Below are positions 2,709-12,829 of a stretch of 26,722 bases of DNA, piece after piece. How positions within the stretch are numbered: position 1 is the first letter of the stretch; each line of letters opens with the position of its first letter. The notes beneath the pieces were generated by a model. That model was not told the origin of the DNA, did not search any database, and saw nothing but the letters and a program-made list of their open reading frames with translations. The stretch is from a virus (taxonomy: Duplodnaviria; Caudoviricetes). The stretch is from positions 1-26,722 of the IMG/VR virus record IMGVR_UViG_3300011405_000023; one strand, given 5' to 3'. The position numbers and the translations under genes are program-made.

Positions 2709-5321
2709 ATGAAAAAAATTATACCATGTAGTCTCAAAAGATTGGGGTTACTATTCTTAGTTTTAGTAGCCTTTGCTACCAACAGTTCTTATGCACAGTG
2801 TAATGCAAGTGCTGAACCTAGATTTGTCTGTGCTGGACCTGGCAATCTCATTGTCTACACTACAGCAAGTGTTCTTTTAGATAATGGTACAACCTTAACT
2901 TGGACTATTACAGGAGATAGTACTGGTGGTGCTAGATTTGTTAACAACAATTCCCTAACTTCTACTACTACTGTTTCTTCTGGTTTGTTTAATAGCGTAG
3001 CTGTACTTTTAGGACCTTTATCTGGTTCTACTGAAGTTAGAATGTCTCTACCAGGTGATCCAGCAGGTACAGGGTGTGCTGCTTCAGTATTTACTAAAGT
3101 TTTAGTTATACAAGGTAGTGCTACTCCTGTAGATTGTCCTAATGATCTCACTACTGTATCAATTACTCCTGGATTAACTGGTACTAAACTAGGAACATCA
3201 GATCAAATTGTTCAATTCCCTAGTCTCCCTGGTGGTTGTGGACAATACACTTATAATTTAGTTACCTCTCCTGGTGGAGTAATAGTAGCAACAAATAACA
3301 CAGGTATCTTTCCTAACGTAACTCCACAGGATTATGTAATCAGAATTACAGACTGTGATGGATGTACTGCTACTTCTCCTATAATTGATTCTTCTGTTGT
3401 AGACCCTCGTCCACTTATTTTGACGTGCCCTGTTGAAGTGGACAGACCAGCATGTGCTTCTCAAGTAGAGCTTGAAGGTATCTTTCAAGCATGGTTAGCT
3501 ACATTTCAAGTTGCAGGTGGTTTTCCTCCAGTAATTACTGTTAGAAATCCTGATGGTATAATTGTACCTTTAAATGCACCTAATCATTGTGGTGGCAGTG
3601 TTACAGTTACTTGGAATGTAAGAGATAATTGTGGATATACTGATACATGTACACGTACATTCTTAGTAAGAGATTCTCTTCCTCCAGTACTTACATGTGC
3701 TCCAGGTGGTAATTTACCATGTAATCCTGAAATTCCTGGTCCAACAGCACCAACAATTACCTCAGCTTGTCCTACACTTCCATATACATATAATGATGTA
3801 GTTACTGGTCCTATGTGTGCTACAGTTCTAACAAGAACTTATACAGTAACAAATGAGTGTGGTCAAACTGCTACTTGTGACCAAGTGTTTAGATACAGAA
3901 TAGACCATGTTGCTCCTGTATTGCACAACGTGCCTGTAGGAAGAGATTTAGGATGTAATCCAGTAAATCTTCCAGCATGTGACCCTCTTGTAACAGCTAC
4001 AGACAACTGTGATGAATTCCCTGTAGCAGAATGCTCTCGTGGAACAATTACAAATACAGGTTGTAATTACAGACAAGTAATCACTTATTCTTCAATGGAT
4101 AGCTGTGGTAACAGAGTGTCTGAAGATGTAGTTTATACTTGGAAAGTAGATACTACTGCTCCAGTTGTAACATGTCCAGGAAGTAGAGATTTAGGATGTA
4201 ATCCTGCAACTCCAGGTCCTGGTGCAGCATCAGCTCTTGATGCTTGTGATGGTGTATTACCTGTTACTGTTTCAGTAGGTGATGTTGTAGCTGTTGATTG
4301 TTTAAGAAGATTAGTAATCACTTATAGTGCTACTGATGAGTGTGGAAACACAGGATATTGTGAAGAAGTAATTACTTGGACAGTAGATCTTATTGCTCCT
4401 GTTATTGAATTAGATCTTGCTCCTACTTTAGGTAATGATCCTACACTTGCAGAAATTTTAGCTGCATTAGGTACTGCTCATATAGTTGATGCTTGTGGTG
4501 CTACTTTAACTTTTACAGATGGACCTGTTACAGAAGTAAGTCCATGTCATTTCACCCAAACAAGAACATGGAGTGGTATTGACAACTGTTTAAATCGTGC
4601 AGCTGATAGAGATCGTACAGTAACATGGACAACTTCTGGTTGTGCAGAACCTAATGGATGTACTTTAGGATACTGGAAAAACCATACTCTAGCTTGGGAT
4701 TGTTATACAACTTGTACATTGTACAAAACTGTATTTACAGGTTCAACACTTGACCCTAATTTAACATTGCTTCAAGCATTGAATTTAGGTGGTGGTGCTT
4801 GTAACAACTTAGCAAGACAATCTGTAGCAGCATTGTTAAACATCTGTGATGGTACTTTAGACTATTCAGTTGCTGATGTAACTGCTTTACAAACTTTAGT
4901 TAATGCAGCTTTTGCAAATGGTACATGTGGTGCAGCTGGTTCTTTATTAGACAGATATAACAACTTAGGTGGTGCAAATCACTGTGATGTTGTGAAATCT
5001 CCTAACACAAATCAATCAACTTGTACAACTAATATCTCTACACCAAAAAAGGGGGTTAATGCTACTGGGAAAGTAGCACCTACTACGACCTTTAAAGCAT
5101 ATCCAAATCCTTTCACTAATGATTTCACAATTCAATCTAATACCATTAATCCTGTAAATATCAGTATTTTTGATAACTTAGGAAGAAGCATTGAAACCAG
5201 AACAGTGAATCCATCTGAATTTGATTTTTCAAGTTTTGGAGGTGGCTACCCAACAGGTATCTACAACATAATCCTTAATCAAGCAACAGAGACTAAAACT
5301 CTGAGAGTGATTAAACAATAA
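2709..5321 (+). CDS. Type IX secretion system (type A CTD) cargo; Cys-rich surface/adhesin-like protein with SprB-like and HYR-like repeats
   Basis: Sec signal peptide ending SYA|Q; SprB-like unit (ATPVDC..YTYNL..TGIFPNVTPQDYVIRITDCDGC); about five ~80-aa D..PPV..C / A.D.C repeats; GCTLGYWKNH domain; C-terminal FKAYPNPF..IFDNLGR..GIYNIIL..RVIKQ. Confidence 0.9.
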   Translation: MKKIIPCSLKRLGLLFLVLVAFATNSSYAQCNASAEPRFVCAGPGNLIVYTTASVLLDNGTTLTWTITGDSTGGARFVNNNSLTSTTTVSSGLFNSVAVLLGPLSGSTEVRMSLPGDPAGTGCAASVFTKVLVIQGSATPVDCPNDLTTVSITPGLTGTKLGTSDQIVQFPSLPGGCGQYTYNLVTSPGGVIVATNNTGIFPNVTPQDYVIRITDCDGCTATSPIIDSSVVDPRPLILTCPVEVDRPACASQVELEGIFQAWLATFQVAGGFPPVITVRNPDGIIVPLNAPNHCGGSVTVTWNVRDNCGYTDTCTRTFLVRDSLPPVLTCAPGGNLPCNPEIPGPTAPTITSACPTLPYTYNDVVTGPMCATVLTRTYTVTNECGQTATCDQVFRYRIDHVAPVLHNVPVGRDLGCNPVNLPACDPLVTATDNCDEFPVAECSRGTITNTGCNYRQVITYSSMDSCGNRVSEDVVYTWKVDTTAPVVTCPGSRDLGCNPATPGPGAASALDACDGVLPVTVSVGDVVAVDCLRRLVITYSATDECGNTGYCEEVITWTVDLIAPVIELDLAPTLGNDPTLAEILAALGTAHIVDACGATLTFTDGPVTEVSPCHFTQTRTWSGIDNCLNRAADRDRTVTWTTSGCAEPNGCTLGYWKNHTLAWDCYTTCTLYKTVFTGSTLDPNLTLLQALNLGGGACNNLARQSVAALLNICDGTLDYSVADVTALQTLVNAAFANGTCGAAGSLLDRYNNLGGANHCDVVKSPNTNQSTCTTNISTPKKGVNATGKVAPTTTFKAYPNPFTNDFTIQSNTINPVNISIFDNLGRSIETRTVNPSEFDFSSFGGGYPTGIYNIILNQATETKTLRVIKQ
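3942..4204 (+). repeat. Exact 20-bp direct repeat between neighbouring HYR-like units
   Basis: AGAGATTTAGGATGTAATCC at 3942-3961 and 4185-4204 (RDLGCNP), 243 nt (81 codons) apart. Confidence 0.85.
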
Positions 5322-5351: not shown

Positions 5352-5436
5352 GGGCTGATAGTGTAATCTGGCGAGCACAGCGTATACCAACATAAAATAA
5401 CACGCAAGTGGGGAGGTTCGAGCCCTCCCTGGTCCA
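5352..5436 (+). ncRNA. tRNA-like RNA 1: tRNA-Ala-like body with an expanded, non-canonical anticodon loop (or a pseudo-tRNA)
   Basis: Acceptor GGGCTGA/CTGGTCC (G1-C72, G2-C71, G3.U70; pair 7 mismatched), A73 then CTA; D-arm GTGT-AATCTGGCGA-GCAC; stem GCGT/ACGC closing an 18-nt A-rich loop; T-arm GGAGG-TTCGAGC-CCTCC. Confidence 0.75.
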
Positions 5437-5457: not shown

Positions 5458-6066
5458 ATGAAGAGAATTATTTTGAGCGCTATGGCGCTAATTGCATTCA
5501 GCTTTGCTAATGCACAGATCGTGACTGATGCTGGTACGTTTACCAAGCCAGTAGAGAGAACAACAATTTTTGAAGCTACTTTAACTCCTGATTTAACAGG
5601 TGGTGGTATCTTCGCATTATCAGGTGTCAGTGATGGCTTAGACCTAGTTGGTATCAGAATCAGACATTTTGAGACTGCTAACAAAGCTATCAGATATGGA
5701 GCACACTTATCTATGTGTGATTCAGGCATATCTGGACAAGACACTGATTTTGCAATTGCATTATCTGTTGGTTTAGAACGTCACAGAGCAGGCGCTGAAA
5801 GATTATCCACATATTGGGGATATGAGGGCAACGTAGGCTATGTTACTGAAAACGATGGTTATGGTGGTTCTACCTCTAAATGGGGTGTTGGTGCAAGTTT
5901 ATTTACTGGTGCTGATTACTACATCATACCTAAGGTGTATTTGGGTGCAGAGATATCTTATGGTGTAGCTGTTACAAACACAAAACCAGAACATGGTAAT
6001 GATGTTACAAGGATTGAATCAAGTCCTAACATTACTCCAAGTTTTAGAGTAGGTTGGCAATTTTAA
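5458..6066 (+). CDS. Outer-membrane beta-barrel protein, Bacteroidota type (probably 8-stranded)
   Basis: Signal peptide ending ANA|Q; alternating amphipathic strands; FTGADYYIIPKVYLGAEISYG; terminal beta-signal FRVGWQF. Confidence 0.85.
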   Translation: MKRIILSAMALIAFSFANAQIVTDAGTFTKPVERTTIFEATLTPDLTGGGIFALSGVSDGLDLVGIRIRHFETANKAIRYGAHLSMCDSGISGQDTDFAIALSVGLERHRAGAERLSTYWGYEGNVGYVTENDGYGGSTSKWGVGASLFTGADYYIIPKVYLGAEISYGVAVTNTKPEHGNDVTRIESSPNITPSFRVGWQF

Positions 6067-6078
6067 AAACCAGAAACC

Positions 6079-6177
6079 ATGTCACTCGTACTAGAAGCTT
6101 TTATAGCTGGTTTTATGGTGGGAGTCGTATTAACAGTCGTTGTTGTATTATTTATTAATACAATGCGCAAACCTTAA
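6079..6177 (+). CDS. Small single-pass membrane protein (32 aa, absent from the ORF track)
   Basis: MSLVLEAFIAGFMVGVVLTVVVVLFINTMRKP; accATG context; lies before the terminator. Confidence 0.55.
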   Translation: MSLVLEAFIAGFMVGVVLTVVVVLFINTMRKP

Positions 6178-6197
6178 AGTTTTTCATCTTGATAGGT

Positions 6198-6246
6198 GTC
6201 CTCACACGAGGACTGAAAAGGGTAAGCAATTACCCTTTTCTTTTTT
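6198..6246 (+). terminator. Intrinsic terminator preceded by an extra hairpin
   Basis: GTCCTC-ACAC-GAGGAC (6198-6213), then GAAAAGGGTAA-GCAA-TTACCCTTTTC (6215-6240) and T6. Confidence 0.85.
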
Positions 6247-6366
6247 GGGGAGATAGCCTAGGTGGCATATAGTATAAAACAAAGGGCAGGGCAAAAAAAG
6301 TACTGAACGTTGGTAGAGGTTGAGGAACTACCATTACTATAGCAGGTTCGATTCCTGGTCTCCTTG
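6247..6366 (+). ncRNA. tRNA-like RNA 2 (120 nt): acceptor stem and T-arm with an atypical, expanded interior
   Basis: GGGGAGA/TCTCCTT acceptor, G73 then CGA; T-arm CAGG-TTCGATT-CCTG; TATAGTA/TACTATA and TGGTAG/CTACCA stems; no canonical anticodon loop. Confidence 0.65.
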
Positions 6367-6404
6367 CGAGTTTCAAACAATTATTAATTTTAAACAATCA
6401 GTTT

Positions 6405-7280
6405 ATGTCAAGTACAAAAACAAATCGTGAGTTGCTTACGTCTATTAGATCGTACAACAAAGTGGCTAGAGAGAAAAAAGCTATCAAAGAAGGCTTTAGC
6501 TCTGCTGACCAAATGATTGCTCATTTAGAAGGGCAAATCAAGCTTGGGAAAGGAAACAAGCCTTGGTCAAATCCCAATTCTGTTAAGCCATATGTGGCTA
6601 CTACAGGTAAATCTCCTTGTCCAACAACCAAAGCTCCTGTAAGTAAAACTACTTCCAAAAGTAGACCAACAATCCATGTTGTGGATGTGTTGGACAGCAG
6701 TGGTTCAATGAGTGGAGGAAAACACAGCGCTGCAAAGAAAGGTATCAACATGGGAGTTGGTGGTCTGAAGGCTGATACAGCTAATGTGAATTACACCTAC
6801 ACTCTATGTGATTTCTCTGATGACCTTATCTTCAGACATGTTAAATCACAATTGAGTGAGGTTAAGGAGTTCAAAGGTAATACCAGAGGCAGTACAGCAC
6901 TGTTTGATGCTATTGGTACAACCATTGAGAAAATCAAAACAGATGGTGGTACTATCAAGTCTACAGACAAAGTTTTAGTGAACATCTATACTGATGGTCA
7001 GGAGAACGCCTCAAGACACTTCACAGCAACTGCTATTGACAGTTTGATTAAATCTCTTTCTGAGGTTGGATGGACCTTTACCTTTATTGGTACTGCTTCT
7101 GATGTAGCATATGCTCAAAGAGTGTTAAGTATCAAAGATTCCAACACTTTAGTGCATGATAACACTGCGAGAGGCTTGGAGAAATCCTTTGTTGCAAACA
7201 CAGCAGCTCGAACTTCATACTCCTCTAAGGTATCTGCAGGAGAAGATGTGAGCGAGGGCTTCTACAAAGACATTAACTAA
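6405..7280 (+). CDS. von Willebrand factor A (vWA) domain protein
   Basis: MIDAS motif VLDSSGSMSG, GSTALFDAIG and IYTDGQENAS; basic N-terminal extension with a P/K/T/S linker. Confidence 0.9.
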   Translation: MSSTKTNRELLTSIRSYNKVAREKKAIKEGFSSADQMIAHLEGQIKLGKGNKPWSNPNSVKPYVATTGKSPCPTTKAPVSKTTSKSRPTIHVVDVLDSSGSMSGGKHSAAKKGINMGVGGLKADTANVNYTYTLCDFSDDLIFRHVKSQLSEVKEFKGNTRGSTALFDAIGTTIEKIKTDGGTIKSTDKVLVNIYTDGQENASRHFTATAIDSLIKSLSEVGWTFTFIGTASDVAYAQRVLSIKDSNTLVHDNTARGLEKSFVANTAARTSYSSKVSAGEDVSEGFYKDIN

Positions 7281-11010: not shown

Positions 11011-11361
11011 ATGACAAAAGTAAAATTTGGAGCAGCCATAGAAGCTGCTAAAGAGGGCAAGTTGATTGCCAGAGAAGGTTGGAATGGTAAAGGAATGTTT
11101 GTATTCCAAAGACCAGAGGATACATTAAGTGTAGACTTTATTATAAACACAGTGAAGTCTTTGCCAGCTTCTCTTAAACAATACTATATAGGGCAACATG
11201 CTCATACTATAGCAGAAAAAGAGAATGGAAAAAGTCCTGAGGACACTCATGTGAAGTTCTCAGCTTATTTATGTATGAAAGCAGCTGATGGATCCATTGT
11301 AAATGGATGGTTAGCAAGCCAAACAGACATTCTTGCAGAAGACTGGGTAATCTTAAATTAA
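11011..11361 (+). CDS. tad2: DUF2829 / Thoeris anti-defence 2 family signal-sponge protein
   Basis: FGAAIEAAKEGKLIAREGWNGKGMFV at the N-terminus and GWLASQTDILAEDW at the C-terminus, the DUF2829 signature. Confidence 0.85.
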   Translation: MTKVKFGAAIEAAKEGKLIAREGWNGKGMFVFQRPEDTLSVDFIINTVKSLPASLKQYYIGQHAHTIAEKENGKSPEDTHVKFSAYLCMKAADGSIVNGWLASQTDILAEDWVILN

Positions 11362-11599: not shown

Positions 11600-12787
11600 A
11601 TGGAAGTAAATGAATTTATTGCAGGAATTAAAAAGTTTGGACTTATCATTGGAGGAGTCTTATTTTCAATTATTTTGGCAGCAAACTGTTTTGAGAACAT
11701 TCAAGCAGGGGAGATTGCTGTAATCCAGAGCCCTATTACAGGGGAATTGTCAGTAGTTACAACTCCAGGATGGGCCTGGCAAGGTGGTGGTACAGTAACC
11801 AAGTACCAAAGATCTAATCAATTGTGGTTCTCTAACAAAGAGGATGAGGGTGGCTCAGGAGCTATCAAGATTGGATTCAATGATTTTGGTGAAGGAACTG
11901 TTTCTGGTAGTGTAAGATGGTATATGCCTTCTAACAAAGAAAGCGTGTTGAAACTACACAGAGATTATGGTACTCAGGAATCTATTGATTTCAAATTGAT
12001 TAAACAAGCTGTAACTAAAGCTATTTACATGTCAGGTCCATTAATGTCATCAAAAGAGGCTGTGTCTGAGAAAAAGACTGCTCTATTGACATATACTGAA
12101 GATCAGGCAAATAATGGTATTTACAAAACAAAAGCTATTGTGAGCAAAGATACTTTAGCAGATGCCAATACTAAACTATTAGAGATAGTTTACAAAAATG
12201 GCACTCCTGAAATCATCAAACCTTCAGATGTAGCTACTTATGGTATTGTTTTATCTAACTTTACTATTAATGAAATCACTTTCTCTGAAGCTGTTACAAA
12301 ACAGATAGCTAGTCAACAAAAATTAGTGATGGCTGTGCAAACAGCTAAAGCTAATGCTCAGAAAGCTATTCAAGATGCAATCACTACTATGAAACAGGGT
12401 GAAGCTGATGCTGCAAAAGCTAAATGGGAGCAAGAAGTTATCAAAGCTAAGCTTGTAACTGAAGCTGAATCTCGTAATAGAGTTGCTGCATTGGATGTAC
12501 AAACAGCTGATTTGAGAAAGAGAAAAGATATTCTTGAAGGTGAAGGTATTGCTACCAAAAAACGCTTGATTATGCAAGCTGATGGTGCTTTGGACCAAAA
12601 ATTACAAACCTACAAAGAAGTATCTAAGTATTGGGCTGATGCTTTCAGCAACTATGGTGGTAGCTTAGTTCCTCAGTTTATGACTGGAGGTAATGGTGCC
12701 ACAGGTAATGCAGGTATAAACTTCATGGAGATGATGTCTGCAAAAGCAATGAAAGATCTTAGCTTGGATCTTAAAAATAAAGGCTAG
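11600..12787 (+). CDS. SPFH / Band-7 (prohibitin/flotillin-like) membrane protein
   Basis: N-terminal TM helix; GEIAVIQSPITG..; YGIVLSNFTINEITF; A/E/K/Q-rich coiled coil; VPQFMTGG tail. Confidence 0.85.
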   Translation: MEVNEFIAGIKKFGLIIGGVLFSIILAANCFENIQAGEIAVIQSPITGELSVVTTPGWAWQGGGTVTKYQRSNQLWFSNKEDEGGSGAIKIGFNDFGEGTVSGSVRWYMPSNKESVLKLHRDYGTQESIDFKLIKQAVTKAIYMSGPLMSSKEAVSEKKTALLTYTEDQANNGIYKTKAIVSKDTLADANTKLLEIVYKNGTPEIIKPSDVATYGIVLSNFTINEITFSEAVTKQIASQQKLVMAVQTAKANAQKAIQDAITTMKQGEADAAKAKWEQEVIKAKLVTEAESRNRVAALDVQTADLRKRKDILEGEGIATKKRLIMQADGALDQKLQTYKEVSKYWADAFSNYGGSLVPQFMTGGNGATGNAGINFMEMMSAKAMKDLSLDLKNKG

Positions 12788-12829
12788 AAAGTATGGTAGA
12801 ATTGAGGGGTTCGACTCCCCTCTCTTTCA
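12787..12829 (+). ncRNA. tRNA-like RNA 3: 43-nt minihelix (acceptor plus T-arm, no anticodon arm)
   Basis: GAAAG/CTTTC stem, 12-nt linker TATGGTAGAATT containing a D-loop-like GG, GAGGGG-TTCGACT-CCCCTC, A73 then CAA. Confidence 0.6.

Follow-up and report, generated by a model that had tools for sequence, protein, structure and literature searches.

What is a tRNA-like sequence without an anticodon loop doing between a terminator-like hairpin and a vWA-domain gene of a phage? The question is raised by a virus record of 26,722 nt, which was analysed over its whole length (hereafter the window). Genes for PolA, DnaB, a helicase, and Sak4-like, Tad2-like, SPFH, AAA and vWA proteins were recognised in this 26.7-kb record. 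For its PolA, the best cultured matches, mostly from crAss-like phages, are at about 29-31% identity, and proteins of an uncultured-phage clade, whose most complete record is 107 kb, are at 60-77%. One window protein carries a Bacteroidota-type secretion tail, from which the host would be a member of the Bacteroidota; a search of GTDB genomes for a relative of the AAA protein found none, and no host genome was linked.

Upstream of the tRNA-like sequence, the window encodes a protein of 870 aa that has HYR-like repeats and a type IX secretion tail (2709-5321) and a 202-aa protein that has an outer-membrane-barrel look by eye and gave no Pfam or PHROG match (5458-6066); both are host-surface cargo, on either side of a second tRNA-like element (slot B, below). 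A hydrophobic 32-codon ORF (6079-6177) follows, which also precedes the terminator in three related loci (L003, L008 and L012), and a Tad2-like gene of the Thoeris anti-defence type (11011-11361; PF11195, E 3.5e-22) lies in the same region as the elements.

Anatomy and folding of the element upstream of the vWA gene

The element occupies 6247..6366 (120 nt to the discriminator base, as delimited by sequence, folding and the family survey) at a site that we call slot A; all features given here are on the + strand. Its first base abuts the T-tract of a terminator-like hairpin (6215..6246, with the hairpin itself at 6215-6240), just as the first-pass annotation of this DNA had described its start, and it ends 38 nt 5' of the start codon of the vWA-domain gene (6405..7280; 291 aa; phrog_7371; PF00092 with E 1.4e-4, just short of the curated cut-off). 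The A/T-rich leader of that gene (6370..6404) is also present in relatives without the element. The acceptor pairs 6247-6253 with 6359-6365 (5' strand 6247..6254; 7 pairs, or 8 with U6254-G6358; pair probabilities 0.65-1.0), and two of the seven pairs, 1:72 and 2:71 at the open end, are G-U, with G-C at 3:70. The 3' strand runs with G73 (6366) and C74 (6367) through 6359..6369 and its end reads CGA, CCA not being encoded. A D-arm remnant (6256..6266), predicted by folding to form a 3-bp hairpin, keeps a GG at 6264-6265 that corresponds to G18G19 and has lost the original 3' strand of the D-stem. In place of the anticodon and variable arms is a 74-nt domain (6268..6341) in which folding gave no anticodon loop; it comprises a 7-bp closing helix (6268-6274/6335-6341) around exactly 60 nt, a weak stem with an A7 loop (6293-6299) and an inner hairpin (6311-6333, paired at 6311-6316/6328-6333). 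Only 1 nt separates the long helix from the stem of the T-arm (6342..6358), which has 4 bp (6343-6346/6354-6357), a canonical T-loop (6347-6353) and a G-G at 49:65. Parsed as 7/5, the top half has 9 Watson-Crick pairs, 2 G-U pairs and 1 mismatch, and parsed as 8/4 it has 9 and 3 G-U; with 9 Watson-Crick pairs this copy is joint weakest among the 24 elements scored. The helices and the A7 run named in the annotation were located where it had drawn them, and its acceptor, G73 and T-arm are likewise all present, the acceptor being less regular than described in its two G-U pairs and the T-stem in having four pairs plus the G-G.

Neither ARAGORN nor Rfam (gathering and E-value thresholds) made a call on the element, and ARAGORN at relaxed thresholds returned noise, with 171 tRNA and 49 tmRNA matches in the window. 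The fold described above (Fold A) is the minimum-energy fold at -31.8 kcal/mol, with pair probabilities of 0.67-0.77 in the long helix. A class II tRNA-like alternative (Fold B), with its D-stem enforced, reached at best -24.2 kcal/mol, 7.6 kcal/mol worse in a model without tertiary contacts, and the pair probability of that D-stem was about 0.0006. The annotation had described two alternative folds; no second fold lies near the energy of Fold A, which is the one favoured by the energy model. The stability of the whole RNA is no better than that of shuffled sequences (z = -0.88; 41 of 200 shuffles as good), and the case for the element therefore rests on its tRNA motifs and on comparison. A 7-bp helix closing at both junctions was found with P = 0.0002 in 20,000 insert shuffles, for a window set post hoc, and with 0.01 when the window was looser. 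Among the seven family members of at least 95 nt, five have a helix of 6-8 bp closing beside the T-arm (P 0.002-0.07 each) and two are without one. By inspection, no excision of an intron restores a D-stem together with a U33 anticodon loop.

Occupancy of the site and a family of 29 elements

Comparison with related loci found different occupants in slot A. Behind a similar terminator-like hairpin, the window has the element under study, L008 has an unrelated, degenerate 79-nt element, and L024 and L040 have a canonical tRNA-Ile(GAU); in L003 and L012, two of the five locus types sharing this context, the slot is empty and the terminator is followed by the A/T-rich vWA leader. A leader role in the vWA gene, which the annotation had suggested, is thus not required, as L003 and L012 have that leader without the element. 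The vWA gene is absent from L024 and L040, and an element of the L008 type occupies a further site, slot C (after the SPFH gene), in L024 and L022. As the occupants are interchangeable, the identity of the element seems not to matter, and the slot A element is a facultative tRNA-derived cassette.

The earlier description of an unusual tRNA-derived non-coding RNA was borne out, the outer 41 nt having as best match the tRNA-Ile(GAU) that a related phage carries at this site (L024 6887-6960, equal to L040 and L255), at the same position and behind the same kind of terminator. The match is 31 of 41 bases, the best among 414 tRNAs (mean 21.1, sd 3.2) and tied with one unrelated tRNA-Gln. Because the outer 41 nt match this slot-mate best, descent from such a tRNA-Ile gene is likely on sequence grounds. 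The full D-stem, the anticodon arm and the variable loop of the tRNA-Ile are all missing from the slot A element; a compensatory change is seen at 6:67, changes at 71, 72 and 73 weaken the stem, and both slot-mates carry A73. The slot A element is a real tRNA-derived element that database tools miss. Only identical copies of it were found (L005-L007): strain L007 differs from the window at 7 positions over 4,650 nt, of which five are in 6215-6246 with pairing preserved and zero in the element, numbers too few to show selection. An exact 22-nt pattern from the element had 0 viral matches, and a gapped D-arm/T-arm pattern had 3, two being chance spans over ordinary tRNAs and one the unrelated L288. 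An 18-nt pattern matched genomes twice, with T-arm and acceptor partner not seen, and both matches were taken as chance; blastn against cultured phages gave nothing above 20% coverage among the 20 matches listed and no record at 80%.

A T-loop scan of the window found two further elements. The slot B element (5352..5436, 85 nt) lies behind a hairpin and has G3:U70, A73 and an 18-nt loop replacing the anticodon loop, and the slot C element (12787..12829, 43 nt), starting at the SPFH stop codon, consists of acceptor, GG linker and T-arm only. The vWA, SPFH, barrel, AAA and PolA proteins were used to gather loci. The first set, of 486,609 bases, gave 43 rows (duplicates and true tRNAs counted), all on the gene strand, compared with 2 in a Markov control. 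A search that started from the T-arm gave 41 unique T-arms in 62 overlapping clade loci, 37 of them on the gene strand. An acceptor partner accompanied 31 of these 37, versus 16.3 +/- 2.7 (maximum 23) in 200 acceptor-strand shuffles. The final tally was 29 non-canonical elements of 39-130 nt in 20 loci, all on the gene strand between genes of Bacteroidota-type phages, with shared ancestry that makes the counts overstate independence. It includes three hand-parsed elements (window 12787, L043 and L263 8049) and a further two entered manually (L022 7007 and L046 16927), and leaves out three canonical tRNAs, L267 (split 4/8 and attributed to chance), four 3' ends of tmRNA type and four minus-strand T-arms. 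ARAGORN called one of the 29 and missed the others. Many clade loci show no element, and the same contigs outside the region (about 316 kb) gave 7 relaxed-scan rows, one a tRNA-Met and the rest chance-like, with no convincing element.

In the 21 curated 7/5 elements, acceptor pairing was found in 21/21 at all seven positions with 3-5 pair types each, counts that carry the bias of a parser that selects for pairing and fixes 12 bp; pairing beyond the top half dropped to 1/21 at position 8 and 3/21 at position -2. The top half has 11-12 Watson-Crick pairs in 20 of the 24 scored elements, with anticodon regions destroyed. L041 and L263 have nearly the same inner sequence and different acceptors and T-stems that are yet fully paired, and further homologous pairs show similar acceptor and T-stem swaps, so that conservation of the top half is supported independently of parser selection. 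The annotation had reckoned with homologs that keep only the T-arm; at family level, acceptor pairing was found to be conserved as well.

Other tRNA features were kept to differing extents. A YGG within nt 9-27 is present in 22 of the 29 elements (background 0.24), C74 in 25/29, A73 in 22/29, G73 in 2/29 and an encoded CCA in 0/29; tRNA loci of Algoriphagus, one Bacteroidota genome, have C74 in 32/32 and CCA in 3/32. G3:U70 occurs in 7/29 elements versus 20/414 canonical tRNAs. The region between D-loop and T-arm varies from nothing to about 80 nt without a conserved anticodon loop, and window 12787 and L013 have a bare linker of 11-12 nt between acceptor and T-arm. The elements are solitary, one (in L046) lying just 5' of a tRNA-Trp. 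A hairpin ends 8 nt or less upstream of 19 of the 29, versus 0.23 of other intergenic points, and 17 of the 29 end 16-28 nt 5' of an ATG; the three canonical clade tRNAs, with 23-37 nt to the next ATG, are like the elements in this.

Several members are of interest in themselves. Two 60-nt tRNAs (L009 4759-4818 and L046 16927-16986), both directly after an SPFH gene, have a perfect D-arm and T-arm, a paired acceptor and zero anticodon arm. Those at L041 8341-8408 and L263 3628-3696 have a shortened anticodon arm with a conserved, A/T-only and partly palindromic loop, and acceptors that differ completely. All four slot B elements (window 5352-5436; L046 8938-9024; L012 4228-4301; L024 6021-6095) have the alanine identity of G1:C72, G2:C71, G3:U70 and A73, on D-arms of apparently three types.

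In some members the clade region also holds the three canonical tRNAs. Genes for tmRNA occur there too, two of them called and one recognised by eye, the full genes being at L263 2439-2815, L264 5653-6108 and L268 5281-5697. In L263 a second tmRNA 3' end lies about 600 nt downstream (about 3390-3420), with an open frame inserted between. Among contigs from RNA libraries (depth 2-5 near the element, with possible DNA carry-over), one spans 6124-6284, running over the terminator and into the first part of the element. In three studies, contigs of low depth and possibly DNA start at 5462-5467, 26-31 nt past the slot B discriminator; neither observation is counted as evidence.

Cut signal, decoy or relic

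We infer, tentatively and at a little under an even chance, that the slot A element is an ex-tRNA gene that may well act, in the manner of a t-element, as a signal telling host RNase P and enzymes of tRNA 3' processing where to cut the phage message. Transcription would read through the hairpin at 6215-6246, and RNase P would cut before G6247, leaving the upstream RNA (the barrel-like gene and the 32-codon ORF) with a protective 3' hairpin. A 3' cut or trimming near 6366-6367 would give a vWA-headed message with a new 5' end about 38 nt before the start codon, and the freed 120-nt RNA would be able to receive CA on C74 and unable to decode. As tolerated cargo, the 74-nt inner domain would need only to fold clear of the top half. 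RNase P is described as cleaving models made of acceptor, T-stem and T-loop, in which it measures 12 bp from the T-loop, and its substrates also include phage M3 and C4 RNAs and mRNAs (PMC11143913). The features kept are those that RNase P reads, which supports the cut-signal reading, and the upstream hairpin and short gap to the ATG would be in keeping with cutting that left the upstream RNA with a protected 3' end and the downstream message with a short leader. Counting against this reading, the hairpin at 6215-6246 is strong and may by itself terminate the upstream RNA, L003 and L012 have an empty slot A, this copy has a top half tied for weakest, and canonical tRNAs have similar distances to an ATG. 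Conservation of the top half fits any processed tRNA mimic and so is no guide in choosing between a cut signal and a decoy, and the excess of G3:U70 points, from the sequences, to charging, a step with which a pure cut signal could dispense.

A trans-acting decoy would need the same processing: the excised, CCA-completed RNA would be a non-decoding tRNA mimic that occupies host factors binding tRNA ends or elbows, such as tRNA-targeting defence enzymes, SmpB or synthetases. We regard this as possible and on the whole improbable. C74 and A73 frequencies across the family speak for it, as do G3:U70 in seven members, including all four of slot B despite their differing D-arm types, six members with what we take to be Leu-type D-arms, and a closing helix in slot A that is improbable by chance; Fold A also shares its topology with the tmRNA tRNA-like domain, for which the TLD-only RNA of mycobacteriophage DS6A is a precedent (PMC4131195). 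Against it, the slot A copy has neither G3:U70 nor A73 and its acceptor starts with two G-U pairs, inner domains are alike in neither sequence nor size, the elements are scattered singly and not grouped behind one strong promoter, and an abundant RNA was not observed; the slot B elements are better decoy candidates. Somewhat less probable still is that the slot A copy is a functionless tRNA gene in decay, in a clade that gains tRNAs at fixed sites and loses them stepwise. The slot-mate tRNA-Ile as best match, the stem-weakening changes, the lost D-stem, the G-G at 49:65, the site empty in two relatives and the restriction of comparison to identical copies are all consistent with a relic, but decay across the family spares exactly the top half, with compensatory swaps, and a new 7-bp helix seals the insert of this copy. 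The cut signal and the decoy may also be combined, a doubtful proposal in which captured tRNAs would be swappable, anticodon-less cassettes that punctuate the message via RNase P and also release CCA-completed, partly alanine- or leucine-chargeable decoys with no anticodon to hit, directed against tRNA-targeting defences or trans-translation.

The remaining two readings are both very improbable. One is a class II or 8/4 serine-type tRNA charged by SerRS, which takes up the class II tRNA-like fold and the SerRS link raised in the annotation. G73 is typical of neither the family nor the site (two of 29 members, and both slot-mates A73), and the reading is not supported, as it needs the disfavoured Fold B, whose A7 loop lacks U33, and Fold A has no variable arm; in its favour are the G73 of this copy, a top half that can be drawn as 8/4, alone among the 21 curated elements, and the existence of 8/4 tRNA-Ser in phages (PMC5389517). 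A two-state cis-regulatory leader controlling the vWA gene would suit the 38-nt distance to the start codon, but no second fold has a similar energy, the terminator lies upstream and not downstream, and relatives that have this leader lack the element before vWA or have another in its place.

Relation to known tRNA-like RNAs

The cut-signal reading takes its model from plant mitochondrial t-elements. These tRNA-like folds lie scattered beside genes, their T-arm is conserved and their cloverleaf non-canonical, and their ends are mRNA ends set via RNase P and RNase Z, with non-encoded C or CA added (Forner et al. 2007, PMC1920247). The slot A element likewise lies beside a gene and combines a tRNA-like but non-canonical fold with a conserved T-arm, and it would act like a t-element if the cut-signal reading holds; t-elements are organellar with mapped ends, whereas it is phage-borne and known from sequence alone, and the phage set spans the range from intact tRNA to a 39-nt top half at fixed sites. 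With a canonical tRNA it has in common the 12-bp acceptor and T-arm stack with a canonical T-loop, and it differs in having neither a D-stem nor a 5-bp anticodon stem with a 7-nt loop (U33).

The likeness to the tmRNA tRNA-like domain that the annotation had drawn stands as to topology, in the acceptor and T-arm and a long helix replacing the anticodon arm, as in the DS6A RNA, and fails as to identity, with G3:C70 and G73 in place of the alanine determinants G3:U70 and A73. There is no tag frame and there are no pseudoknots, and the 5' strand differs from those of the real clade tmRNAs (L263, L264 and L268). No tmRNA model matched the element at default settings, and the match at relaxed thresholds is one of the 49 in the window. 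The element thus lacks defining features of a tmRNA (PMC11915505); mycobacteriophage DS6A is described as carrying a TLD-only RNA, and a similar molecule as inhibiting tmRNA (PMC4131195). The 8/4 allo-tRNAs and phage 8/4 tRNA-Ser (Mukai et al. 2017, PMC5389517) resemble it in G73 and in a 12-bp branch that can be drawn as 8/4, and differ in their long D-stem with tetraloop, anticodon loop and variable arm, which are missing from its favoured fold. The slot A element is taken to be neither a serine tRNA nor a tmRNA piece nor a required vWA leader.

The T4 small RNAs RNAC and RNAD, of about 140 and 120 nt, have tRNA-like ends. They lie in a tRNA cluster, whereas the elements described here are solitary, and no sequence match to them was found by blastn among cultured phages. 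Both come from the tRNA region of the phage, and PMC3014915 assigns them no role. YrlA bacterial Y RNAs, found in some phages too, have a tRNA-like module that RNase P can cut and that gains CCA (Chen et al. 2014, PMC4201824); the slot A element is without their GNCGAA motif near the 5' end, and no Ro60/TROVE gene was found in the 30 window proteins scanned or in four related records, one of them 92% complete. Viral tRNA-like candidates were also presented by Fremin et al. (2023), in a main text that, as available, is silent on anticodons and Bacteroidota (PMC10690425).

Punctuation of messages by tRNAs is established in organelles. No report of such punctuation, or of anticodon-less intergenic elements, in phages was found in the literature searched, which lies mostly outside the subscription journals. 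The family bears on the reason for tRNA genes in phages, and 28 of its 29 elements escape standard finders. Sites that hold an intact tRNA, a degenerate tRNA, a bare top half or nothing form a natural series of states, by which one can test directly whether RNA cutting or a decoy role, and not decoding, is what keeps some 'tRNA genes' in phages; this family and its series of states outweigh the single slot A copy and its two folds.

Three further observations were made on the way. A motif made up of GTG and then an ACAY-loop hairpin recurs in the clade at seven places in six loci (window 6191..6213, + strand; L012 4893; L016 3151; L018 2635; L023 2655; L041 8322 and 10315), just 5' of terminators or directly 5' of tRNA-like elements, with stems that covary; it is a candidate phage promoter, antitermination or processing motif. 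The unrelated virus L288 has, on the minus strand at about 1492-1600, a solitary intergenic 8/4 tRNA-like element missed by ARAGORN, with the same D-loop as the slot A element, an intact D-stem and a long inner domain. A more distant phage (L049 1293-1365) carries a tRNA with a CUA anticodon, of the amber suppressor type, which may indicate TAG recoding.
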